Shown here piece after piece: positions 3,261-45,526 of a stretch of 45,526 nt of DNA. The stretch covers positions 1-45,526 of IMG/VR virus record IMGVR_UViG_3300022178_003431; one strand, written 5' to 3'. Each line of letters starts with the position of its first letter. Position 1 is the stretch's first letter. Below the pieces are notes generated by a model. The model was not told where the DNA came from. It made no database searches and worked only from the letters and a program-made list of their open reading frames with translations. The stretch comes from a virus (Duplodnaviria > Caudoviricetes). The translations under genes and the position numbers were made by a program.

Positions 3261-3622
3261 ACCATGATGAACCAACATTAGATTACACAGCTAAGGCAGA
3301 ACCTAAACTACGAGTACTAACTCCTGAAGAGTACCCTACATGGGAACAGGCTCTTGATTGGGCGTATGACCAAGGGGAAACTCACGGTATGAAAGTGGCT
3401 ATGGCTACTGAAACCCCTCCTAAGCACTGGATGAATAGCTCAACTATCATGGCCGCTCTCAAAATACTTGGCGCACAGTTACCCGTAGCTCTCGCCTATG
3501 CTGCGACTCTGTTCATTGATGGTGACTTTGTAGGTTGGGGCGTGGCGCTAACAAGCGCTATGACGATATGGCAAGTACCCAACGTTATGAAAGGCAGAAT
3601 CAAAGCAGGGGGAATATTATGA
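3257..3622 (+). CDS. Holin-like protein with two C-terminal TM segments
   Basis: ATGA overlap with endolysin; two hydrophobic helices and basic C-terminus. Confidence 0.5.
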   Translation: MNHDEPTLDYTAKAEPKLRVLTPEEYPTWEQALDWAYDQGETHGMKVAMATETPPKHWMNSSTIMAALKILGAQLPVALAYAATLFIDGDFVGWGVALTSAMTIWQVPNVMKGRIKAGGIL

Positions 3623-4026
3623 ACAAAGTATTTTTAGGCGGCACATGTAACGAATCAACGTGGAGATCGAAATTAATTCCTGTACTTGATGTTGAATACT
3701 TTAATCCAGTGGTTGAGGACTGGACACCAGAGTGTCAGCAGATAGAAGAGTATGAAAAGGCAAACGTCTGCAATATCCATTTATATGTCATTACTAATAG
3801 AATGAAGGGTGTTTTCAGTATCGCTGAGGCAATTGAATCCGCAATGACACGCGACAAACAAACAATTCTTCATATAGTTCCCGAGGGTTTTAGTAGCGCC
3901 CAGTTATCATCTCTTCAAGCGGTGGCTAACATGGTGAGAAAGCATGGGGGAATATCGTATCTTTCCGAGGATCTTCATAGAACCGCCAGAGTGATAAATA
4001 ATAGCTATTCAAGTAAGGTGGCATAA
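3619..4026 (+). CDS. Nucleoside 2-deoxyribosyltransferase-like domain protein
   Basis: KVFLGGTC...WR...YFNPVV.DW and FSIAE motifs; ATGA overlap at 3619. Confidence 0.72.
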   Translation: MNKVFLGGTCNESTWRSKLIPVLDVEYFNPVVEDWTPECQQIEEYEKANVCNIHLYVITNRMKGVFSIAEAIESAMTRDKQTILHIVPEGFSSAQLSSLQAVANMVRKHGGISYLSEDLHRTARVINNSYSSKVA

Positions 4027-4027
4027 A

Positions 4028-4186
4028 ATGAAACTACTACCAACCGATAAGATCGGCGCGTATGTGTTTGGCATACTACTTGTGATGTTTGTATCTGCAA
4101 TACTATTTTCAGGAGGGTGTGCAATGTTCGATCCTTGCGCGTACATACCTACTGATTACTCTAATGGAGAATCAAAATGTTTATAA
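4028..4186 (+). CDS. Small membrane/lipoprotein, 52 aa (not in ORF track)
   Basis: MKLLPTDKIGAYVFGILLVMFVSAILFSGGCAMF...; hydrophobic core then SGGC; AAGGTG upstream. Confidence 0.5.
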   Translation: MKLLPTDKIGAYVFGILLVMFVSAILFSGGCAMFDPCAYIPTDYSNGESKCL

Positions 4187-4866
4187 ACAAAAAAATCCTG
4201 CTAGCCACTGCACTGGCTTTAGCTCTTGCAGGGTGCAACACCACTCTTAACTGGAAGTCTGTAACTAATCAGAACAATGGCGACGGTAGCATGCAGTACA
4301 CGCCGTCAAATGATTCTGCACTCAACAACAATACTATCGACCAGATTGGTAACAGTGGTGACACACTGATTGCGCTATACAAAGCATTGCTTGAGAGTAA
4401 AGCAATACCAATACCCAAGATCACTGGTGGAGATTGTAGTGACAAGTCGTGGCAGTTCTGGAAAGAGAAATGTCAAGAAGTCATTGTAGTTCCTGATGTT
4501 GATATAAAGCCGAAGCCTGACGTTGTTGTCACACCACTACCTGATCCTGATGTACCACCAGTTATTAAGACACCTGTTACATCTGATAGTTGGAGTGGAG
4601 GTAACTTGTGGAAACCTATTGCGGAGTCAAGAGGCGGCGTACCTGCTATACTTACTAAACCTTCAATCGGTCAAGCAGACTTACGTTTGTTTACAGAGGA
4701 AGGTGACGAGATACAAGTCAACGAAGAAAAGCGTGGACGTACTAATGGTAATCGAGAGACATACTTTCTTATTGGCATCAAGGCACGTACACTACCGAAG
4801 AACTTGATTTTACATATTGGTGATAGGACTTGGTTAGTTCCTGATCCGAATCAACGTTACGAGTAA
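4177..4866 (+). CDS. Lipoprotein with Pro/Val-rich linker
   Basis: Signal peptide II with LAGC lipobox; GGAG RBS. Confidence 0.8.
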   Translation: MFINKKILLATALALALAGCNTTLNWKSVTNQNNGDGSMQYTPSNDSALNNNTIDQIGNSGDTLIALYKALLESKAIPIPKITGGDCSDKSWQFWKEKCQEVIVVPDVDIKPKPDVVVTPLPDPDVPPVIKTPVTSDSWSGGNLWKPIAESRGGVPAILTKPSIGQADLRLFTEEGDEIQVNEEKRGRTNGNRETYFLIGIKARTLPKNLILHIGDRTWLVPDPNQRYE

Positions 4867-4867
4867 T

Positions 4868-4896
4868 AAAAAAGGCCCCTTAATTGGGGCCTTTTT
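4868..4896. terminator. Bidirectional intrinsic terminator
   Basis: AAAAAAGGCCCC-TTAATT-GGGGCCTTTTT between convergent genes. Confidence 0.88.
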
Positions 4897-4897
4897 A

Positions 4898-5203
4898 CTA
4901 TTCGTAGTCCAGGATTTTACACCTTTGACTTGTCCACCCTACCTCCTCTATCCTCATACCATTTAGCTTTATACTTTCTATTACGTTTAACCACGACCTG
5001 TGTGAATGCATAACAGACTTGCCTGTAGGTACTAACACTCTAGTTTTAAACTTCGTGTTACCTTCACGTTTAACGTCTTCTTGAGTAGTGTAGAACACTA
5101 GTCTAGGCCACGTAGGATCTCCTGGTATTACAGAGAAGGGTTCTATGTACTCTCCTAATGGCTGTATAGGTGAGTACACTAATGCTTCTTTATACATGTA
5201 CAT
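4898..5203 (-). CDS. Hypothetical protein
   Basis: 101 aa, AAGGAG RBS, overlaps ligase stop. Confidence 0.65.
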   Translation of the reverse strand: MYMYKEALVYSPIQPLGEYIEPFSVIPGDPTWPRLVFYTTQEDVKREGNTKFKTRVLVPTGKSVMHSHRSWLNVIESIKLNGMRIEEVGWTSQRCKILDYE

Positions 5204-6407
5204 GTCTCCTTATTCGTTTAAACACTGGTAAGAATAAGCTGTTAATTTCTTTAGACTTACTCTTAACTATGTCGTTGTAACATACCTCCACCAACTGGTC
5301 TTTGTAGTTGTCATTGAAGTCCAGGCCTCTGTCATAGTCACTTAGGCCTGTGCCCACCTTGACTTCTACTTTAACTCCTTCAACAGTGCCTTCACATATC
5401 AATGCACCTAACATAGACTGGTACTTGCCCCTGCCTTCTTCGTAGTCAACACACATAAGTACACAATCTTTTATGGCCTTTTTCTTTATAAGCCTGGGCG
5501 TTCTAGCCCATACATACGGATCATTCATGTACCTAATTATAATGCCTTCATAGCCTAGTCTAAGCTTAGTTTCAAACAGCATATCCACTTCTTTAGGCTG
5601 CTCTATTATAAATTGTGTAGCCAACATTACGTTAGGTAGCACAGGCATACTGTGTAATTTACTATATCTATCGCTATACAGCTCTGTGGATGTTTCAGTA
5701 GCCCAGTCTGTAAGACTAACTACGTCAAACACACAGTACTTATAGTTGTTTATTTCATTTGTAGATCCTTTAAGCACCTTGTTAACGTCACCTGTTATGG
5801 CTGTTCTGCCTGCCTGCATACCATTGCCATGCACCAGTTCTCCGTCATACACGCCTTCAGCACACGTAGCCATCTGCTCTTTTAGTGATGTAAGATCAAG
5901 CTCTTTACCATTACGAGTTTTAAGCTGAACTCCATCTTTAGTTACAAAGGCTAGTATACGGACACCATCATACTTTGTGGATACAGCTACAGGCCAACTG
6001 TCTATCTCTACGTCCTTAGCCAGCATAACCTTAAACTCGTTTATTAGCCCAGGGTACGCTTTGTTAATGGATGTAGTTGATACACCTGCCTTCAGGCTAC
6101 CGGATAGTATTAACCTAAACATTGCCCCGTACTGCTGAGAACAGTGCAGGGCCATGTCCCTTGCTCTATTACCTACATACTGTCTGGAGATAAACGCACC
6201 AATAGCTGTAAACATTTCTTTACAGTCTAGCTCGTCATCAGGTATAAACGTGTTATCCTTAGGAGCTGACACATAGTAGTTAATAGAAGTATCGTACATG
6301 AGCCGAAGACATTCTAGCCAATCTTCGTTGTGCTCTTGAGTTCGTAATACGTCCAGTTTCTTTGTTGTACCTTTAGCTCTTCTAAGCTCATGCACGATAT
6401 TCATCAT
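5190..6407 (-). CDS. lig: ATP-dependent DNA ligase
   Basis: KYDGVR, YDGEL, FDV, EGIIIR motifs and OB-fold VGTG...LPVF. Confidence 0.95.
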   Translation of the reverse strand: MMNIVHELRRAKGTTKKLDVLRTQEHNEDWLECLRLMYDTSINYYVSAPKDNTFIPDDELDCKEMFTAIGAFISRQYVGNRARDMALHCSQQYGAMFRLILSGSLKAGVSTTSINKAYPGLINEFKVMLAKDVEIDSWPVAVSTKYDGVRILAFVTKDGVQLKTRNGKELDLTSLKEQMATCAEGVYDGELVHGNGMQAGRTAITGDVNKVLKGSTNEINNYKYCVFDVVSLTDWATETSTELYSDRYSKLHSMPVLPNVMLATQFIIEQPKEVDMLFETKLRLGYEGIIIRYMNDPYVWARTPRLIKKKAIKDCVLMCVDYEEGRGKYQSMLGALICEGTVEGVKVEVKVGTGLSDYDRGLDFNDNYKDQLVEVCYNDIVKSKSKEINSLFLPVFKRIRRHVHV

Positions 6408-6420
6408 GTTAAATTACTCC

Positions 6421-7314
6421 TTAAACTTCGTTGTTAATAATTTGGTTGAACAGATGCTCGAATGGTACGTTGCACCTATACTCATCACGAGGTAGTGGAT
6501 TATCAAATGTAATACCAGTCCAGTCAACGCCACGTTTCTTAAGCTCAGCTGCATGCTCCTTATCAGGCGGATAAGTATTAACATTAAACTTAGACTGTAT
6601 GGCAGTCATGTATATACCTAACAAAGGTTTAGGAGGCATCTTAGCTTCTAGCATAGGATAGAACTTAAGTAGCTGTTGTCTACATCTTGCCGCTAGTATG
6701 TTGTCAGAAGTTGGTTGATTAGTTCTGTCCAGTCTGGTGTTTATAAACATCATCCAGGACTTAAGATCGCCTGTCATCATATACTTTTGCTCTTGACAGA
6801 AAGGCATGTAATGTCTGGCATCGTAGAACGTCATACCGCTGTCTAAGGCATCCTTGTACAGCTGAAGGGAGTCATTACACAGAGTTATGGCTCTTTCAGC
6901 CAGTTCGCTGTTTTGTACGTATGCTTCGTTATGTAGAAAATCATGCCCTTCAAGTGAGCCCCAGCCAGAGCTCTGGGCCGAGAAGCCAAACATACGATGG
7001 CGAAGTATGTGAGTAACGTTAGTCATGTCCAGGCCTTCAAGAGCCATGGTTATACGAATTGTTTCCATAGCTGTAGGAAGTGTTCTACCTTCAAACATTT
7101 CCATAACTACATCATGCCTGTTCATGCCCTTAAGCTCCATGATTTTTTCTACTTGGCCGTTCTCTTCCAGCCATGTCATACTGACAAACTCAGGTATATA
7201 CTCTTCCAGGTCCTTTACTGTAGGGGCCTGGATTATAGTGGCAGCTATACTTGACAGATGCATTTTATGTTTGGCTGTACCTGTTAAAGGATTTGCTCTA
7301 GTTGATTTACTCAT
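6421..7314 (-). CDS. Divergent ThyX-like flavin-dependent enzyme
   Basis: RHR-x7-S, DARxxxP, GDLKSW..F...R motifs; several catalytic-site positions non-canonical. Confidence 0.8.
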   Translation of the reverse strand: MSKSTRANPLTGTAKHKMHLSSIAATIIQAPTVKDLEEYIPEFVSMTWLEENGQVEKIMELKGMNRHDVVMEMFEGRTLPTAMETIRITMALEGLDMTNVTHILRHRMFGFSAQSSGWGSLEGHDFLHNEAYVQNSELAERAITLCNDSLQLYKDALDSGMTFYDARHYMPFCQEQKYMMTGDLKSWMMFINTRLDRTNQPTSDNILAARCRQQLLKFYPMLEAKMPPKPLLGIYMTAIQSKFNVNTYPPDKEHAAELKKRGVDWTGITFDNPLPRDEYRCNVPFEHLFNQIINNEV

Positions 7315-7595
7315 GTGTTTTTACCTCGTGCTATTGTTTCACTTAATCTTGCGTACCCTTGAATGTCATGCCAGCTATCCACATGATATGGAGTTACTGA
7401 CAGACGGCACAACTTATTTACTATGTCCCACAACATGCCTTTGGCCACTTCAGGCATTTCGACATCACCATTGTTACGTGCATAGTCTTCGGCCAACACT
7501 CTCATAATCTCGGCCCTTGACTTTACGCCTGTACCATAGTCCCCATACACGCTACCCCTGGCCTCAAGGGTAGAGTTAATTGTTTTCTCGCTCAT
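7311..7595 (-). CDS. DUF6378-like protein
   Basis: RG..YG ... K..R ... H.DSW.DI.GYA pattern. Confidence 0.7.
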   Translation of the reverse strand: MSEKTINSTLEARGSVYGDYGTGVKSRAEIMRVLAEDYARNNGDVEMPEVAKGMLWDIVNKLCRLSVTPYHVDSWHDIQGYARLSETIARGKNT

Positions 7596-8079
7596 ATATT
7601 ACATATTCCTCTTCAAATAGTTTAATGCGTTCTTTAGACGCCTCTAACACCTCAGTCATATAACCAGAGTTACCTAGCTTAACCTCGGTCTGTGAAAATT
7701 GCATACACTGTATAGCGTCTGCAAACTTAACCATCTTAGCTTCGACCTTAACGCCCTTCTCATAACTGGCTAGATAACATCTAACTACATATGGTAACTT
7801 CTTTAAGACTTCCTTTTCACTTTCCTTGAATGCTTTAGCTATCAAAGGGTACTTAACCTTTATAGTTCTAGGCACGTCATTCAATTCTATTTCAGGCATG
7901 TCGTGGACAATGGCCATAGCCACTGCTATGCTTATGTCGAAGGCATACTTCTCATGTAGTTTGAATAAGATGGCAGCCACAAAAAATGAATGGCTAGCTA
8001 CACTCTCGCTACGTATTGTATGTACAGTACTATACCTTTTGATATGGTCTAGTACATATATGTCCTCATAATAACTCAT
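7576..8079 (-). CDS. HD-domain nucleotidase (YfbR/DatZ-like)
   Basis: KRY, ESVASHS, VHD..E...D, VKFAD motifs. Confidence 0.88.
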   Translation of the reverse strand: MSYYEDIYVLDHIKRYSTVHTIRSESVASHSFFVAAILFKLHEKYAFDISIAVAMAIVHDMPEIELNDVPRTIKVKYPLIAKAFKESEKEVLKKLPYVVRCYLASYEKGVKVEAKMVKFADAIQCMQFSQTEVKLGNSGYMTEVLEASKERIKLFEEEYVIYERENN

Positions 8080-8510
8080 TGCATATTGCCCTTGTACTGT
8101 CTAAAGGATATTTCACCGTAGGTTATCAACTCTGCAAGGGCCAACTCTAAGTCAAAGTAATCTGTAATAACTTTAGTAGCTGTAGCTGACAGCATGATAT
8201 TGAACGGATGCTCAGTGTTAGTGTAGTAGTAACTAACAGGTATATGCATGGCATGTGCGTATCCACACTCCCACAACGTTCCCATGTCTTTGCCAGCTGT
8301 ACTGGCTATCACAGTTAAACAGTTGTCTATGGCACTTATGTTACCCTGCACTAACGCATAAGGCTGGTCTCCAGGTTTCCAGATGCCTGCCTTACGAGGA
8401 GAGAAGTATGAAACTCCACTCACCTCACACGCATTCTCTATATCTTCAACTGCTTTAAGTTGGTCTGGGCTAAACCACCCACCTGCTATGTATACTTGTA
8501 TTGCTTCCAT
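8076..8510 (-). CDS. Nucleoside 2-deoxyribosyltransferase / nucleotide N-glycosidase family
   Basis: VYIAGGWFS, FSP, DMGTLWECGYA, N.ML motifs. Confidence 0.88.
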   Translation of the reverse strand: MEAIQVYIAGGWFSPDQLKAVEDIENACEVSGVSYFSPRKAGIWKPGDQPYALVQGNISAIDNCLTVIASTAGKDMGTLWECGYAHAMHIPVSYYYTNTEHPFNIMLSATATKVITDYFDLELALAELITYGEISFRQYKGNMQ

Positions 8511-9193
8511 TATGCTCTCTCCGCCACTATGGCTACTTGGGTTGCTAAATCGGGTTCAATGTTCATAGAGTTAATAGCTCTTGATAGGCCCATAGGCATA
8601 CCATCAAACGTATTAATGCTGGTAACAAAAGGTACACGGCTATGCCAGCCTAACTCTACAGTTAACTTCCACCCACTGATCTTTAGTAGATGGCACAACT
8701 GGTCCCAGGTTAATTCATGGTCATGGCTGTCTGGCCATACTAACTCTCCAGGGCTATGAGGTGATGGGGTAGTTAGAATAAGTTTTCTACCTACTCTATG
8801 AGCCTCTTCAAGTACATATTGCATTCTATCTAGTGGAAAATGCTCAATGACTTCAGCCATAACTACAGCGTCCACACTGTCATCGAGCTGAACCAATCCG
8901 TCTTTGGCTACATCCCTATACTTAATGTCAGAGTCCAGAGGTGGATTAATGTCATAGCCTATGTATCTAATACGAGTATTGAAGTTAAGCTCTAGGTAGC
9001 CACGTAGTTTACTGTCTGCTGCACCTATCTCCACCACTTTGTCACAGCCTATAAGGTTGTTACAGATAAACACATTCTTAAACAGGGTGGACCAGGACCA
9101 GTGCTTTGTCCAGTCACACTTATGAAATAGGTGGAACTCTGAGTTAGCGTTAGTGATGCTGTTACCATCAACACGAGGTATGTTGTTAATCAT
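8510..9193 (-). CDS. Class I SAM-dependent small-molecule-type methyltransferase
   Basis: VVEIGAA, YIGYDI, DAVVMAEVIEH, LILTTP; ATG at 9193 preferred because it couples to the upstream gene. Confidence 0.85.
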   Translation of the reverse strand: MINNIPRVDGNSITNANSEFHLFHKCDWTKHWSWSTLFKNVFICNNLIGCDKVVEIGAADSKLRGYLELNFNTRIRYIGYDINPPLDSDIKYRDVAKDGLVQLDDSVDAVVMAEVIEHFPLDRMQYVLEEAHRVGRKLILTTPSPHSPGELVWPDSHDHELTWDQLCHLLKISGWKLTVELGWHSRVPFVTSINTFDGMPMGLSRAINSMNIEPDLATQVAIVAERA

Positions 9194-9461
9194 TTGGTCT
9201 TGTACCTTTTCTATAGTTGTATAAGGGGCAGAGTAGAGTACTACATGTACGCACCTCCACCATGCTTCCACCTTGACACTCAAGGCAGTATTCTCTAACA
9301 GCTTTGACAGGTGTTCTAGCTGCGTTCATTGATCTTTTACCTCTTCTGTTATGCCACAATGGGCATGTAGTTATCTCACAGGATCTAGCAGCTGACCTAC
9401 TGCCTGCGCAGTCTATACAGTTAAACCTTATAGCCTTCAACGGCGTAAGCTCTAATTGCAT
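9186..9461 (-). CDS. Tandem Cys4 (zinc-finger-like) repeat protein
   Basis: Two units TPxKAxRxxCxxC...C....CPL...R.G; start 9461 or 9500. Confidence 0.75.
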   Translation of the reverse strand: MQLELTPLKAIRFNCIDCAGSRSAARSCEITTCPLWHNRRGKRSMNAARTPVKAVREYCLECQGGSMVEVRTCSTLLCPLYNYRKGTRPND

Positions 9462-17246: not shown

Positions 17247-17924
17247 TTACATTACGGGATCTTCAGCCTCATCGTCAGACTCTTCAGCAGCCTCAACTTC
17301 AGGTGCGTCATTGTCAGCAGGAATCGGGAAGTCTTTAACACGCTCACCAGCAGCAGCCAGTGATTCGTTGTTAGCAGCTGCCACAAGAATAGTGTAAAAC
17401 ATATTCATGTAATCAATTGCATTTCGATGCCCTTTGACAAGCGGTCGAACTACTGCGTAAAACTCTTCACGAGTAGGCAACTGGTTAGCTGCAAACAAGT
17501 CAGCCATTGCGCGAGGTACCTTACCGCCGGCTGCACGAGTACCTCCAGACTTACTTGCTTTAGGCTTGACAGGTAGCTCAATCTCTTCGTCACGACAAAA
17601 TGATCGTACAAGAGTTGTTACTCGAGCTACTGTAGCGCCATCCACAGAATCGCAAATTGCATTGATTATGTCTTCCACACTTGACCAAGTTTCACACTCG
17701 TCCCAAGCTACCTTTTCAACTTTCTCGTTGATGTCGTTAGTGACAGTCTTTGGATCGACCATCAAGCCCTGTTCGATAGCTATACTTCTAAACAAAGAGT
17801 TTAGCTTACTGAAAGGGATCTTAGCACCAAACATATCCATCTTGATGTCGTCTTCGCCTTTACCTGCTTCGAAGCCTGCAGTGATAATGCCTAGGGCCAG
17901 TGTTTTTAATTCTTCTGTGTTCAT
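17247..17924 (-). CDS. Unknown helical protein with acidic tail; paralog of 26103-26429
   Basis: First gene behind minus-strand promoters; shares N- and C-terminal blocks with the 108-aa ORF. Confidence 0.8.
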   Translation of the reverse strand: MNTEELKTLALGIITAGFEAGKGEDDIKMDMFGAKIPFSKLNSLFRSIAIEQGLMVDPKTVTNDINEKVEKVAWDECETWSSVEDIINAICDSVDGATVARVTTLVRSFCRDEEIELPVKPKASKSGGTRAAGGKVPRAMADLFAANQLPTREEFYAVVRPLVKGHRNAIDYMNMFYTILVAAANNESLAAAGERVKDFPIPADNDAPEVEAAEESDDEAEDPVM

Positions 17925-20792: not shown

Positions 20793-21251
20793 ATGACTAA
20801 CGAACTAATAAACATCAACGACCCTGATGTACAGGCTTCGGCCCAGGAACTAAAAGAGTACTTCCTTCAGAATGCCAAGGGCCTAGTACAACAGTATGTA
20901 GATGCTGCTATAGGTACAAGTACACTGGCCAGTACAAACTCTGATGCTCGTAAAGAAGTGTGGGACGTACTTAAGAAACTTATACTATCATCCAGCGACA
21001 GGCTAGGTGTTGAAATAGATAGTGTAGAGTCTATACTAAGGGCAGTGTCACAAGGTAAGTGTACGTTTGAAGAAGGCGAGAAGCTACTTGACTTGTTTAA
21101 GAAGGCAAAAGAAATATCAACTATGGGTAAGTTACCAGCAGGTGGAAAGGGTGCCTTAGAGGGTGGATTAAATATAAGCATATCAACTGGAGGCGGGGCT
21201 GCTCAGCCTATAACTATTGCGCCTGCTGGAGATGCACTAGAACATGGCTAA
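20793..21251 (+). CDS. Hypothetical protein; terminase small subunit candidate
   Basis: 152 aa, helical with C-terminal beta strand (GGLNISIS); function is inference only. Confidence 0.5.
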   Translation: MTNELININDPDVQASAQELKEYFLQNAKGLVQQYVDAAIGTSTLASTNSDARKEVWDVLKKLILSSSDRLGVEIDSVESILRAVSQGKCTFEEGEKLLDLFKKAKEISTMGKLPAGGKGALEGGLNISISTGGGAAQPITIAPAGDALEHG

Positions 21252-24844: not shown

Positions 24845-25525
24845 CTAGGCAAACACATTACCAACGTCAACTCCGTACTCAGTGGCATGCTTTTCTAGCA
24901 TGTCGTAGGGTAAGTCACAGAACTGAGATAGTAACATCAAGTACACCCCCACAAACACCGGGCCATGATTCATCATAGGTCCCCAGTCTTCTCCACGAAG
25001 AGCAGCAAGGTAGCAGGCAGCTGCATGTGCTGTCTCGTGGGTTACGACCTGGGTAGTATGCGCCCATTCCTTAACACCGGGTAACGTTATAGAGTTATCC
25101 CCGAGCATAGCCAAAGAGGCATGGCGTCCAGGTTCGAACCAGGAATACAGATCATGAGTAGTCCCGGCTAGGTCCGCATCAAGCGAACATGATAAGGTGG
25201 AATGGTTGGGCTCGTTATCCAGGTTAACCTGGTTAAACAGCTTGGCCACATTTCCATGATGAGTTATCTTGTCCGAGTAGATCGGGCTAGTGTAGTAAGC
25301 CCTGGACTTAAGCCTGGGCCTAAACTCAATGGTTGGGTGCATCCACAGTGGTATGTCAAAGGAATTCAACATCTGTGTTACTGCACTCGGTATGATTGAC
25401 TTAGGAAGTGGATCAAACATTAACAACCCATCTTCCTGGTCGTAGTCACTTAGTAACTGTTTGAGCTCCGGAGAGTTCTCCCAGTTATAAAGCTTTCTGA
25501 TTTGATAATCTCGTACTAGAGACAT
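24845..25525 (-). CDS. HEXXH zincin-like metalloprotein (Rv0185/SprT-like)
   Basis: RDYQ...LY.WE, VVTHETAH, HGP.F; ATG 25525 has AGGAG RBS (ORF-track start lies within the promoter). Confidence 0.78.
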   Translation of the reverse strand: MSLVRDYQIRKLYNWENSPELKQLLSDYDQEDGLLMFDPLPKSIIPSAVTQMLNSFDIPLWMHPTIEFRPRLKSRAYYTSPIYSDKITHHGNVAKLFNQVNLDNEPNHSTLSCSLDADLAGTTHDLYSWFEPGRHASLAMLGDNSITLPGVKEWAHTTQVVTHETAHAAACYLAALRGEDWGPMMNHGPVFVGVYLMLLSQFCDLPYDMLEKHATEYGVDVGNVFA

Positions 25526-25627
25526 TTTGCTATACTCCTGTATTGATACTAGGTTTTTGAAAAATTTGGGCCTATCCATGACCACGCTTATTGAATGAGA
25601 CTTTGTAATGACTGATTCAATATCTTG

Positions 25628-25656
25628 ATAATATATCATTATTTCGACTTTGTCAA
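25628..25656 (-). promoter_or_regulatory. Sigma70-type early promoter
   Basis: TTGACA-17-TATTAT. Confidence 0.78.
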
Positions 25657-25679
25657 GAACTATTTCAACAAAGTTTTTT

Positions 25680-25990
25680 AGTAGCTAGGTGCTAAATCTA
25701 AATTATATAATGATCTATTAGTTGATGACTAAGCCTAATGCAGGGCTAGAAGTGCTAAAATAACGAGGCTTTTATAAAATTTTATAGAAAATTAGATAAT
25801 TTATCTTATGCATCTGAGAATATATATATATATATATATAATTAATTTATTTCATATGATAAATGATCTAAATTATTATAAGCCCATCTACAGGCCTTTT
25901 ATCCCAGATATAGATTTTTAGACAAGTTAGATTTAGACTTTAGATAATATAGATAAATCTATAAATACTATAGCCCTACGACTTGGTCAT
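25680..25990. repeat. AT-rich non-coding region with (TA)10 and short direct/inverted repeats; candidate origin
   Basis: (TA)10 at 25821-25840; ATCTAAATTAT twice; imperfect IR 25725-25748/25971-25990. Confidence 0.5.
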
Positions 25991-26102
25991 TTTGCTGCAT
26001 TAAATTTTAAAAGAACAGGAATTAATAAACTTTCGTCTATTCGACTGAGCCCTGGAGTCCAGGACTCAGTAGGATAGATTGGCCATCCTTGGCCAAGGTG
26101 GA

Positions 26103-26429
26103 TTAAGCTTCCTCGTGGACTAAGTTCGCGAGCTTGCTCATCATGTCATAGAAGTACTTTGAGTACTTTTCAACATCTTTGACTTCGTCTGTTATCAAGT
26201 CTTCGAACTCAGCTTGAGTTAGATACTTATTTTCAGCAAAAGCCGCTACTACTTTCTCTCTCCAGCCGTCACCTTTAGCTCGGCCGAATTTCAACTCTGC
26301 ATCCTTTAAAACTTTTGGAACTTTAGAGAAAGCGCAGCCCTCAGCCATTAAGCTTGAAGCTATATCATTCTTGCTAGAACCTTCGTTGAAAAGAGATTGA
26401 GCTAATACTACTAGGTCTTCATGTTTCAT
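26103..26429 (-). CDS. Unknown helical protein; paralog of 17247-17924
   Basis: 108 aa, AGGAG RBS, first gene behind 26500-26527 promoter. Confidence 0.8.
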   Translation of the reverse strand: MKHEDLVVLAQSLFNEGSSKNDIASSLMAEGCAFSKVPKVLKDAELKFGRAKGDGWREKVVAAFAENKYLTQAEFEDLITDEVKDVEKYSKYFYDMMSKLANLVHEEA

Positions 26430-26499
26430 GTTTGATACTCCTGTTTAAATTATAAAAGATCGACCGAACCGAGAAAGTTTTTCTTGATTCGATGGAGCT

Positions 26500-26527
26500 A
26501 TAATAACAGAAATAAATCATCTGTCAA
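26500..26527 (-). promoter_or_regulatory. Sigma70-type promoter with upstream A/T tracts
   Basis: TTGACA-16-TATTAT with extended TG; A/T tracts 26530-26590. Confidence 0.72.
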
Positions 26528-26593
26528 TAACTTTTTTGAAAATAATTGAAAAAAGTTGAAAATAAATTTTTTTCTTTTTTTTGAAAAGAAGAA

Positions 26594-26940
26594 GCGCGCG
26601 TGCGCGTGCGTGCGTCGTACGCGTTACGTGCGTTGTGCGTACGCGTGTGCACGTGTGTGCACCTGCATACGTGCACCTGCATACGTGTACGTGTGTGCGT
26701 GTGCGTACGTACACGTACGTGTGTGCGTGCGTACGTGTGTGTGCACGTGTGCGTACGTGCGTGCGCACCTGCATACGCGCGCGCTCGTGCTCGCGTGCGT
26801 GCCCGCGCCCCTGGGCGTGCGTGCGTACCCGGCCGAGCGCGCGCCACGCGTCACCCGCGGCCGTACGCGCGTGTCGTACGTGCGCGTGCGTGCGCGTGCG
26901 TATACGCGTGTGCGTGCACGACGCGCGTACGTAGGCGTGC
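26594..26940. repeat. Alternating purine-pyrimidine tract (Z-DNA-prone)
   Basis: Mostly GC/GT/AC/TA alternation, aperiodic; GCACCTGCATACG at 26659, 26673, 26765. Confidence 0.92.
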
Positions 26941-27085
26941 CGGGGGAAAAACGAAAATGTCGATCATATCATAATGACCAAAAATGTGTTTGTGGCTTTT
27001 TTACACTGTATTCGTGTGTACACCCCTGCGATTTAAAATCATAATATTATCTTCATATTATTTCAAGTTACTGTCGCTATGCCTA

Positions 27086-27114
27086 TTGACTTTATATTAT
27101 ACATAGTGTATCAT
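27086..27114 (+). promoter_or_regulatory. Sigma70-type promoter for packaging/virion operon
   Basis: TTGACT-17-TATCAT. Confidence 0.68.
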
Positions 27115-27237
27115 TATATGCATCGTGAAAGATCGATCAGCATAGCAATCTATCTAATTGATCTATAAACTTAGCTACTCTAAAAGGCCTTATATCACAT
27201 AGCACCAGCTACCAAGCTAACGCTACCCTGACATACT

Positions 27238-27450
27238 ATGGATTACTTTAACTTAACAAAACAGGATCTACAGCAACTGTTGCCTTACCAAAGGGTAATG
27301 TACGATGCTGCCAATAATCCTGTTACGTTACCATATATGCCTAAGGCACGTAGAGCAGGCAAGGGCGAACTTCGTGTAACCTTAATGGACAGACAAGCTT
27401 ATGAACTAATGCAGACAGAAGCAGGACTGGATAACGATGAACTTATCTAG
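27238..27450 (+). CDS. Hypothetical protein
   Basis: 70 aa, contains LLPYQR and RRAGK; weak RBS. Confidence 0.5.
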   Translation: MDYFNLTKQDLQQLLPYQRVMYDAANNPVTLPYMPKARRAGKGELRVTLMDRQAYELMQTEAGLDNDELI

Positions 27451-29335
27451 TACCAATACGCTACACCCTGACCACACAGCAGAGTATGCGCCTCTGCTCC
27501 AGTACACCTTGTGTTTTAACCCAGCTGACTCAGCTACTCCAAATAGTCCACTGGTTGTGTCTGGCCAGGCTCCAGGTACTTCACCACTGGAGGTGGATAC
27601 TAAAGGTTTTTCTCGTGTTCCCCTTGAAGTATCCACACCAACCGTTAATGAAGCTAATCTTGCAGGTACTGCCGTAGATAAGGTTCCTCCTATCCCTGAA
27701 ACTACGCAAAACCATTTCACCAAAGCATCTTTAACGGATACAGACACCCCTCACGGGGTTGACGATTTACCCGATTCTTTCCCTGAATCTCCTCCGGCGA
27801 CTATGAAAGCTACGTCGTCACTTAAGTCTGAAGCTAATGTATTGAGACTACCATACGGGCTAGACCTTCGGGACTATCAACAGCCCGTATGGGACTATTT
27901 TATGCAGGATAAGCCAGGCTTAAGAGGCCAGACTATATGGCCTAGGCGGAATGGAAAGGACTTAGTTGCATTGAATATCCTTATAGCTAAGGCTATTCAA
28001 CGAGTTGGCTTATACTTGTATATAGGTCCGCTACACACCCAAACGAGGCAGATAGTCTGGTTGGGTGGTACAAATGAAGGTAGGAAGTTCTTAGACTTCT
28101 TCCCTCAGCAGTTAGTGGCTGCTAAAAGAAACAGCCAAATGGAGATTGACTTAGTCAATGGTTCCATGGTTAAAGCTGTAGGCAGTGATCAGTATGATAG
28201 TTTAATGGGCCTTAATGTTATGGGTGCTATCTTCACTGAGTACTCTCTACAGCGTCCAGAAGCTTGGGACTATATTCGTCCTATGATGGCGGCTAATGGT
28301 GGATGGGCACTGTTTAACGGTACACCTCGTGGTATGAATCACATGTACGTTATGAGTGTAATGGCTCAGAAAAACCCTAAGTGGTTCTATCAATATCTTA
28401 CTAGAGACGATACAGGCTATCCTACTCTAGAGGCTATTGAAGAAGATCGTAGGGCTGGCATGAGAGAGTCTCTTATAGAGCAGGAGTACTATTGTTCCTG
28501 GACTGCTTCTACAGAAGAAGCTTTCATACCTCTTGACATTGTGGCACCAACTACTAAGCCTGATGCTGTCCTGTCACGTAAAGCTTATGAGCATGCACCT
28601 AGAATACTAGGTTGTGACGTTGCATACGCTGTCAAAGGTGATAAAGCGGTTATATCTTACAGACAAGGTAGAAAAGTTCATTGGCTTAGAGGTTATCAGG
28701 GAATGGATAATATGGCCTTTGCTGATGAAATTGTGCGTTATATTAAAGTCGTTAGACCTCATGCAGTACGTATTGATGCTGGTCGAGGTGAAGGTGTTAT
28801 TAGTAGACTATATCAGCTAGGTTACAGCCATCTGGTAGAGGGAGTTCACTTCAATGGTAAGGTATACAAAGAAGGTATAGCTGACATGAAGGCTCTCATG
28901 TGGATAAGGATGCTAGAATGGTTTAAAGATACCAACATTCCTGACTTGTCGGGTATAGCTGAGCATCCCGAGACTAACGAGCTTGACGTTGTTGAACAAC
29001 TAGTTACTGAACTTACTACTCCTAACATGATACGTGACGAAAAGAACCGTGTCAGAGTGGAACCTAAGTCTTCACTTAAGAATAGAGGCCATAGGTCTCC
29101 AGATTTCGCTGAAGCTTTAGGCTTAACATTCTCGGAAGAAGACGAGAACATTCAAACTGATGGAGCTCTTTCACAAGAGTTGATAGACTTAGGTGTTACT
29201 GCAGAAATGCTGGAACTAGCTCAAGCAAGTAAGGCTGCTGAAAGCTACAATCCTTTAACATACATGCAAGACTTAGAGTCTGGTCAGTCATACGATAACA
29301 ATGGTGCATTCGAGTCACGATATGGATTCAACTAA
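27437..29335 (+). CDS. terL: Terminase large subunit
   Basis: LRDYQ, WPRRNGKD, AIFTEY, NGTPRG, QEYYC, GCDVA, SPDFAEAL; start may be 27803. Confidence 0.95.
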   Translation: MNLSSTNTLHPDHTAEYAPLLQYTLCFNPADSATPNSPLVVSGQAPGTSPLEVDTKGFSRVPLEVSTPTVNEANLAGTAVDKVPPIPETTQNHFTKASLTDTDTPHGVDDLPDSFPESPPATMKATSSLKSEANVLRLPYGLDLRDYQQPVWDYFMQDKPGLRGQTIWPRRNGKDLVALNILIAKAIQRVGLYLYIGPLHTQTRQIVWLGGTNEGRKFLDFFPQQLVAAKRNSQMEIDLVNGSMVKAVGSDQYDSLMGLNVMGAIFTEYSLQRPEAWDYIRPMMAANGGWALFNGTPRGMNHMYVMSVMAQKNPKWFYQYLTRDDTGYPTLEAIEEDRRAGMRESLIEQEYYCSWTASTEEAFIPLDIVAPTTKPDAVLSRKAYEHAPRILGCDVAYAVKGDKAVISYRQGRKVHWLRGYQGMDNMAFADEIVRYIKVVRPHAVRIDAGRGEGVISRLYQLGYSHLVEGVHFNGKVYKEGIADMKALMWIRMLEWFKDTNIPDLSGIAEHPETNELDVVEQLVTELTTPNMIRDEKNRVRVEPKSSLKNRGHRSPDFAEALGLTFSEEDENIQTDGALSQELIDLGVTAEMLELAQASKAAESYNPLTYMQDLESGQSYDNNGAFESRYGFN

Positions 29336-44873: not shown

Positions 44874-45236
44874 ATGGCAACAGTAGGACATTTGAGCGGC
44901 AGTACCGACGGGCAACCGATTCTTATAGCAGCAACAGCAACAGCGGGAACAACAGTACATACCGCAGTAGCGGCAATAGATCAGATCGACATGGTGCATC
45001 TATATGCACTGAACGGGCATACGGCGTCGGTAGAAATCACAATAGAATGGGGCACAACAACTGCTACCAAAAATCTGGTTGTGACGATACCAGCAGATTC
45101 CGGTCTGACACGCATCACGCCGGAGGGTGGATTACCAGCGCAGAACAGCAATGTTGTTGCAGTGTTTGCGGGGACAACCAATGTTGTTGCAATCATGGGC
45201 AAAGTGGTTCGGTCTACAACTGATGAGGCGCACTAA
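44874..45236 (+). CDS. Tail-associated beta-rich protein
   Basis: 120 aa, AGGA RBS; allele of 63-425. Confidence 0.8.
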   Translation: MATVGHLSGSTDGQPILIAATATAGTTVHTAVAAIDQIDMVHLYALNGHTASVEITIEWGTTTATKNLVVTIPADSGLTRITPEGGLPAQNSNVVAVFAGTTNVVAIMGKVVRSTTDEAH

Positions 45237-45526
45237 TGGTATTTAGCACTAATAATAGTGGGCAATGGGAAAATTCAGTTAGTAAGAGAGTGTCGTTCCC
45301 CGCTGACTCTATAGAATCAGAAGTAATCACTCTCAATTCTGGACTTGCTACGTTGTCTGGCGTGGATGGTGGCAGCTTTTATTCTGGGGGTACTGATGAG
45401 TTAGATCAAGTATTCTACTTCGATCAAACTGTTTCTAGTTATCCAGCTAATAAAACCTTTACAACCGTTTCCGCCGACAACACTAGTGAGATACAGTATC
45501 ATAGTGAGGGTGTATTTGCTCAGGTT
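45236..45526 (+). CDS. 5' part of tail-tip protein; continues into 716-1093 on the circle
   Basis: MVFSTNNSGQWENSVSKRVSFPADS... vs MSYSTNNSNYWKSTISKRVGFPADS... Confidence 0.8.
   Translation, partial: MVFSTNNSGQWENSVSKRVSFPADSIESEVITLNSGLATLSGVDGGSFYSGGTDELDQVFYFDQTVSSYPANKTFTTVSADNTSEIQYHSEGVFAQV

Follow-up and report, generated by a model that had tools for sequence, protein, structure and literature searches.

The 347-base stretch in which purines and pyrimidines alternate (an RY tract) is a real feature of this freshwater phage genome. We suggest, with a probability of about 0.55, that it is a lineage-specific expansion of simple sequence filling a variable spacer at a likely genome terminus or concatemer junction, beside a box that is likely cut by the terminase. 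The tract is real and extreme, and nothing so far shows a job for its flipping into Z-DNA; the interesting part is the recurrent order of RY tract, G-run and A-run before terminase genes. The window, by which we mean the whole 45,526-nucleotide stretch of DNA that was analysed, is an uncultured podovirus-like genome from freshwater metagenome runs.

The tract occupies positions 26594-26940 (347 bp, 69% GC, no strand assigned), is G/T-rich on the plus strand and re-uses the words GTGC, GTGT, CGTACG and ACGT. Purine and pyrimidine alternate at 89% of its steps, against a genome mean of 51% and 69% in the best 100-nt window elsewhere in the genome. The longest perfect RY run, 91 nt from 26678 to 26768, lies within it; the best run outside is 21 nt long and is an (AT)n. 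That run is part of a phase-coherent core at 26634-26770, the segment predicted to flip to Z-DNA, which also holds three copies of GCACCTGCATACG (at 26659, 26673 and 26765, with no further copy in the genome). Alternation falls to 0.69-0.73 in a central GC-rich break at about 26800-26865 (GC 80-86%), and a second perfect run, of 46 nt and opposite phase, is found at 26875-26920. A block of A/T tracts at 26526-26593 separates the early promoter from the tract. The initial annotation had described this tract at these coordinates, with its three repeated units and central break, and all of this holds. It had also described abrupt edges against A/T tracts, and here the right edge needs correcting, as CCGGGGG comes first and A5 only after it.

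Separately assembled contigs carry an identical tract, namely single contigs of runs X1, X3, X5 and X7 and locus L001; this support consists of assembled contigs only, X5 and X7 representing one sample and X1 and X3 perhaps not independent of the window. Runs X6 and X9 have gaps inside the tract, and in X10 and X11 the region is uncovered. An assembly artefact, or a chimera with a eukaryotic microsatellite, was rejected, several contigs running across the tract; short eukaryote-like contigs do map on it at 90%. With low-complexity filtering, a blastn search of GenBank phages gave no match to the region. Protein coding was rejected as well, the six-frame ORFs being low-complexity products of stop-free RY DNA, as was a non-coding RNA or special hairpin on folding and Rfam results: as single-strand DNA the tract does not fold better than its dinucleotide shuffles (z -1.12), and all 23 Rfam matches in it fell below the gathering score, the sub-threshold ones being RY-rich miRNA hairpins.

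The initial annotation held that an RY pattern is maintained here rather than a repeat unit. The alternation is indeed there, but the pattern is not a free one: this is low-complexity sequence with tandem rows. Tandem Repeats Finder reports 11 overlapping rows in the tract, every one of even period (4-24). The core has 51 distinct 6-mers, compared with 78.7 +/- 4.2 in RY-preserving shuffles, and the tract holds CGTACG 9 times and TACG 15 times, where such shuffles hold them 2.2 and 5.2 times. Relative to shuffles that keep the R/Y string, ACGT is re-used while AT, CATG and GCGC are avoided, and the core's sole phase-keeping transversion comes down to a single word in three copies. The tract is pieced together from duplications of even period, its complexity below that of the controls and its duplications in register, as expected for simple sequence derived by slippage. 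Duplication in a two-base register would keep the alternation without any selection for it. Slippage is not evidently ongoing. Thirty sites vary in 25000-28500 and none of them in the tract, where 3.0 would be expected; at P of about 0.15 after merging neighbours, this absence is uninformative. Nor did the five spanning contigs, which as contigs drop rare variants, show any indel or substitution in the tract, and hence no length polymorphism. Around the tract, the population variants at 25227-25228, 25280-25281, 27034-27043 and 27276-27277 are adjacent double substitutions in or near short palindromes. Inversions were considered for three of these pairs (25227-8, 25280-1 and 27276-7), which read as reverse complements, and were rejected, as the flanks gave no clean inversion.

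The word content bears on an idea in the initial annotation that the tract is a decoy array of restriction sites, which we regard as very improbable. CGCGCG, GCGCGC and ACGCGT occur 6, 5 and 4 times in the tract against 0, 0 and 2 times elsewhere, but CG-containing sites are low because CpG is depleted genome-wide (observed/expected 0.66, against 1.82 in the tract). The most avoided hexamers of the genome (GATATC, ATCGAT, TGATCA and AGATCT) are absent from the tract, TACGTA is not avoided but over-represented outside it (1.45), and a restriction enzyme would cleave sites in the genome instead of just binding them. Besides those four hexamers ACCGGT is avoided genome-wide, and CAGCTG and CTGCAG are 3-4 times over-represented.

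Our preferred reading, a spacer at a terminus, draws first on position. The genome combines T7-like tail tube genes, an epsilon15/BPP-1-like portal and a ZP6/HTVC010P-like terL with DNA polymerase A, helicase, primase and ThyX; no match to a single-subunit RNA polymerase was found in this phage. Its two arms diverge at the tract and converge at a hairpin, the early arm being interrupted by a plus-strand primase, a small gene and a resolvase. This symmetric hairpin (A6-GGCCCC-loop-GGGGCC-T5, 4868-4896, no strand assigned), seen in the sequence and unlisted by the terminator scan, looks like a bidirectional terminator. The tract sits in a non-coding gap of 809 bp (26429-27238), the largest among the genes checked (111-29335), so that a large non-coding gap lies at the divergence of the arms upstream of the terminase, as expected of a terminus region. 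The two-arm layout, the gap and the hairpin at the convergence together recall the terminal-repeat layout of cobaviruses (PMC6775973). The outward-facing promoters announced by the initial annotation were both found, as sigma-70-type promoter-like sites. The one for the early arm, at 26500-26527 on the minus strand, scores 11/12 and has a TG extended -10, and the one for the packaging and structural arm, at 27086-27114 on the plus strand, scores 10/12; they are among 15 matches of a promoter scan in which 6.8 were expected.

As had been said, the tract lies upstream of the gene for the terminase large subunit, terL (phrog_2, 27437-29335, plus strand), which is preceded by a 70-aa ORF at 27238-27450 on the same strand. 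The ATPase begins near residue 135 and the start is uncertain: the part at 27437-27835 encodes a 130-aa low-complexity N-terminal extension that is absent in relatives, and the real start may be downstream. A candidate gene for the small subunit (terS) lies at 20793-21251 on the plus strand, between the primase and a RusA-like resolvase. It has no family match, and TerS is proposed as its product on grounds of size, conservation and resemblance. Its distance from the tract, 5.3 kb, counts against the preferred reading. It lies 6 kb from terL, in the same place in genomes G001 and G002; in more distant relatives a small gene directly precedes terL.

Three further observations concern the genome as a whole. 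An AT-rich block at 25640-26030 (no strand assigned), with (AT)10, a 100-bp imperfect palindrome and TAGA/TCTA repeats, is likely a candidate replication origin separate from the tract, 560 bp away; similar blocks occur in G001, L003 and L136. The ends of the window overlap (75-715 and 44886-45526, 86% identity over 641 nt), which suggests a circle that is almost complete and was joined across two variants, or two paralogs, of genes associated with the tail; its CheckV completeness is 73%. A nucleotide-metabolism cluster at 3535-9283 comprises two nucleoside deoxyribosyltransferase-like genes, an HD 5'-nucleotidase, ThyX, DUF6378 and a SAM methyltransferase; tblastn did not find it in G001 or G002, and base modification or nucleotide-pool defence is a possible role.

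Relatives were gathered by scans with terL and the capsid protein. The initial annotation had named absence of the tract from relatives as evidence against a function, and all three of the closest relatives with an intact slot (L003/L048, L129 and L132, terL 70-72%) lack it, while L003, L129 and L132 keep the first early gene and both promoter registers (TTGAC..TA(T/C) in the case of the late promoter). The slot holds a short GC patch in L003, a AGAGTATTT-type array in L129 and an AATGAT/GAGAAT array in L132, with best 50-nt alternations of 0.52, 0.60 and 0.70 and not one CGTACG. In G001 (L002, terL 74%) the contig is broken at the slot at both ends, in repeats. More distant relatives L136 and L137 (terL 48-55%) have partial RY blocks (0.84 and 0.80), and in L463, L514 and L459 a repeat array adjoins the box on its other side. 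The tract itself is not conserved; what is conserved is the adjacent box, the promoters and the first early gene. Elsewhere in G002 (L003:1-60 and the end of L045), a perfect 12-bp tandem array of GTCTTTCTGCTT is found at the start of the primase region. Host prediction from the MAG bin names of distant relatives was abandoned, as the names contradict one another.

The box, CCGGGGGAAAAA at 26940-26951 on the plus strand, is present in a single copy in the window, as is GGGGAAAAA, and is a candidate site of terminase recognition or cleavage. In the form YYGGG(G)AAAA it is found at most 2 kb upstream of terL in 12 of 15 non-redundant phages, the window included, a count that leaves out L130, L133, L135 and L450, whose upstream sequence is short, and L140, a near-duplicate of L516. 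The downstream background of the pattern YYGGG+AAAA is 3 matches in 76 kb (0.04 per kb). The box is missing in L048 (which has the variant GTGGGAAAAA instead), L137 and L516, and the match in L518, at an atypical distance, may be due to chance. A weakly conserved block (..AAT(A)GACC..TTTT) lies 3' of it at 26952-27005 on the plus strand in an alignment of six phages. A conserved, single-copy cis element of this kind is expected of a terminus region, and we believe that the GGGGGAAAAA box likely marks the packaging cut in the genome. No locus with this clade's terL came out of a scan for the box plus AATAGACC. Two points weigh on the other side: assembled contigs run straight through the region, and the terminus is deduced from sequence features rather than from read mapping.

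The first early gene (26103-26429, minus strand) encodes a 108-aa protein, which the initial annotation had proposed, as one of a paralog family, to read the tract. It does have a 225-aa relative at 17247-17924, and its family has 59 representatives in 110-aa and 200-aa forms. The predicted structure (pLDDT 87) consists of six helices and no strands, arranged as two three-helix units that are weakly HTH-like, there is no Z-alpha among its fold matches, and the gene is kept, in synteny, in L003, L129 and L132, where the tract is absent. Searches with this gene returned only loci already known, and a broader alignment yielded no usable pattern. The fold matches that were obtained are bipartite HTH repeat-binders (Pax6, SETMAR and a CRISPR-repeat binder), at E values of 0.3-2.3, which are not significant. 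They would fit a tract made of iteron- or operator-like words (CGTACG, ACGT and TACG), bound as B-DNA by this two-unit helical protein or by TerS. The enrichment of CGTACG and TACG, the avoidance of AT and CATG and the presence of CGTACG near the late promoter of the cultured phages ZP6, VP2 and 69E27.1 are in keeping with such an array. Duplication alone accounts for the enrichment, however, the words are irregularly spaced (6-90 nt), and the three relatives retain the protein with no CGTACG in the slot; we therefore consider an array of binding sites improbable.

The initial annotation called the tract prone to form Z-DNA. We estimated B-Z transitions with a rough two-state model and approximate energy values. 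In this model the tract is the best Z site of the genome: the first flip comes at sigma of about -0.04, and at sigma -0.06 in a 5-kb domain 80 bp flip, at -31 kcal/mol compared with -6 for the best site elsewhere. The description is upheld to the extent that this rough energy model predicts competence for Z-DNA; selection for it was not seen, and the order of the letters is not Z-optimised. By summed YR-step energy, 80-82% of RY-preserving shuffles were more favourable than the actual sequence in the three segments compared. A whole-tract comparison, in which all 150 shuffles were more favourable, was set aside in favour of these segment-wise tests because shuffling shifts C-rich letters from the break into the core. 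Measured against what is expected of a flipon, a long tract able to flip at physiological supercoiling is present as a prediction only, alternation at the syntenic site is kept in none of the three closest relatives with an intact slot (maximum 50-nt alternation 0.52-0.70), and none of the three segments has a Z-optimised letter order. The tract fails two tests for a functional Z-DNA switch.

The initial annotation had proposed just such a switch between early and late expression, one that senses supercoiling. On this reading, divergent transcription would drive the tract into Z-DNA, which would absorb about 15 negative turns and re-tune both promoters. The geometry is right, the promoters lying 66 and 145 bp from the tract edges, and the modelled flip and its energy speak for it too. 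Both promoters and the first early gene are nevertheless retained in relatives that lack the tract, and supercoiling would be lost from the linear molecule if the genome ends here. Nor is a reader apparent, as no Pfam match to Z-alpha was found among the 46 ORFs scanned. C5-methylcytosine, which had been suggested as an aid to the transition, finds no support either, since no C5-methyltransferase family match was found in the genome, whose only methyltransferase match is to a generic SAM-dependent one (8510-9283). We think such a switch has little chance of being the explanation.

The structural packaging or terminus signal that the initial annotation also entertained has, by comparison, gained support, from the position of the tract, from the analogy with ZP6 described below and from an association with terL in unrelated phages. 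We scanned IMG/VR with a 30-nt GC-rich RY pattern chosen to match the window's tract; about 260 stretches match, of which 120 were listed, 80 of them with flanks. The window's tract is the longest among the 120 matches listed (340 nt by the scan measure; median 62). Forty-six flanked loci have at least 60 nt, and dropping the window's own phage, one duplicate and one locus without ORFs leaves 43. For each locus terL was called from the longest ORF on a side, in flanks of 3.0 kb (2.5 kb for controls). Among these listed matches, terL points away from the RY tract within 3 kb at 14 of 43 loci and toward it at 1; in a control of 80 loci from the unrelated pattern scan (box plus AATAGACC), it points away in 4. 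Fisher's test gives P 8e-5, and 1e-3 after merging relatives into 11 groups, the loci not being independent and RY tracts being the sole repeat class compared. Contig ends near RY tracts were not counted as evidence because repeats break assemblies. At most of these loci, read in the orientation of terL, the RY tract is followed by a G- or C-run, often an A-run, and then a promoter and the terminase, and L235 has GGGGGCAAAAAACG at the position of the window's GGGGGAAAAACG. RY-rich blocks are also present at the same junction in L136, L137, L517, ZP6, VP2, BUCT555 and 69E27.1. One RY-adjacent terL has its nearest cultured relative in Caulobacter phage RW, which shows no RY tract in the 8.9 kb examined. 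Many RY tracts of 35-60 nt in viral contigs (L175-L294) have inverted iteron-like flanks, as in L217, L191, L264 and L283, and may be origin-like.

This recurrence could mean that the alternation is itself selected. Ahead of the G-run and A-run, the RY part would be bendable or Z-forming DNA whose shape is read by the terminase or a helper, having arisen convergently in unrelated phages; it would bend or flip to Z-DNA under the torsion of concatemer transcription or under terminase wrapping, and so position or time the cut. The repeated RY character of tracts near terL exceeds what a slot tolerant of any array would lead one to expect, the CpG-rich tract persists against the CpG-depleting trend of its genome and is its best modelled Z site, and bending is reported to favour Z-DNA (PMC9335521). 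We consider this reading unlikely all the same, on several grounds: the three closest relatives with an intact slot lack the tract, its YR-step energy is no better than that of shuffles, and the G-rich strand, which is the terL sense strand in the window, is the opposite one at 11 of the 14 other loci. Moreover, what little non-coding DNA phages have gathers at this junction, where low-complexity tracts of any kind would consequently be over-represented. Across 41 non-redundant loci of the terL family (2.5 kb each side), upstream RY content was not significantly above downstream (P 0.10), which speaks against our preferred reading.

We favour the spacer at a terminus, and suggest that events may have run as follows. 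A short element of the CGTACG/GTGC type, as found near the late promoter of cultured relatives, would have grown into the tract by slippage in a two-base register. The box would be the conserved element that the terminase recognises or cuts, and the slot, which would tolerate any array, is probably flexible spacer DNA inside or next to a terminal repeat. The small terminase and host proteins would handle this spacer during cutting and duplication of the ends. A flip to Z-DNA is predicted for some 70-100 bp in supercoiled circles or concatemers; it would be a by-product of the physics of the DNA and not a selected switch.

It is an open question by what means terminases recognise genome ends with almost no sequence in common, and we know of hardly any documented case of a natural Z-DNA element at work in bacteria or phages. 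The single-copy conserved box would predict the terminus for a whole uncultured clade, and a long natural Z-prone tract can be synthesised and tested on gels and with reporters without culturing the phage. Should shape prove to be the signal, the window's tract would be the best natural substrate on which to test a Z-DNA role in viral DNA packaging; should the alternation be dispensable, it would amount to a hypervariable repeat of the end region, of use chiefly for marking termini in metagenomic phage contigs. In our literature search, no paper connected phage termini or terminase with Z-DNA or with tracts of alternating purine and pyrimidine. In its accessible part, a preprint on Z-DNA across the tree of life (10.64898/2025.12.30.697008) describes prokaryotic and viral evidence as limited and does not use the word phage.

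Cultured phages with known or proposed ends allow a comparison. The termini of the Alteromonas phage ZP6 were mapped by its authors with PhageTerm (PMC8515928), and the supplement to that report gives a terminal repeat of 643 bp. This repeat takes up the final 643 bp of the record, spans the first early gene with its promoter, and ends in the most alternating 100-nt window of the genome (0.76; next 0.69), about 175 bp before the late promoter. ZP6 is nevertheless distant from the window, its terL showing 41% identity across 36% of the query, and has a weak RY block. Short RY elements are found at this junction in VP2, BUCT555 and 69E27.1; for phiVC8, a relative of VP2, a cos site there was only proposed, from a tree (PMC4802629). 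In Pf-WMP3 the 234-bp terminal repeat starts within the top 50-nt RY window (0.80; next 0.76), beside a C6 run; this window is not the top one at 100 nt. A-4L, likewise of the Saffermanviridae, has a C6 run and no RY maximum at its ends, and the terminal repeat of ICBM1 starts with C-runs and is not RY-rich. Of the four phages with mapped ends, two (ZP6 and Pf-WMP3) thus show an RY feature there, if weakly. In cobaviruses, which are two-armed as well, direct terminal repeats sit where the arms diverge, and the 5' end of the repeat carries a conserved G+C-rich block (PMC6775973).

ZP6 (Mareflavirus), the cobaviruses (Zobellviridae) and Pf-WMP3 (Saffermanviridae) thus share with the window a big non-coding gap at the arm divergence, G-run blocks and outward sigma-70-type promoters. 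The RY-richest window is found at a mapped end in ZP6 and Pf-WMP3, whereas the window's end is a predicted one. Its RY block is also longer and nearly perfect (347 bp, against about 130 bp at 0.68-0.76 in ZP6), its candidate terS is displaced, and there is no sequence similarity to these phages. Short phage RY tracts with inverted iterons, represented by many matches below 60 nt among the 120 listed, use the same GC-rich RY vocabulary, but such flanks are absent from the window's tract. Its alternating chemistry and predicted B-Z transition are shared by eukaryotic compound (GT/GC/AC)n microsatellites and engineered (CG)n/(CA)n Z-DNA inserts; unlike these, the tract is single-copy and aperiodic and lies in a CpG-depleted phage genome at a fixed functional landmark. 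A comparison with T7 and T3 concerns the short-repeat arrays (SRL and SRR) that flank the terminal repeat, and PacB/PacC. The likeness is that of an imperfect array of short repeats that differs between relatives and adjoins a place of concatemer processing. The unit is a fixed 7 bp in T7, in contrast to the RY patchwork of the window, which has a terL of another family and no match to a single-subunit RNA polymerase. With an end that we infer rather than map, the tract region would by analogy resemble the repeat-filled ends of T7-like and two-armed podoviruses.
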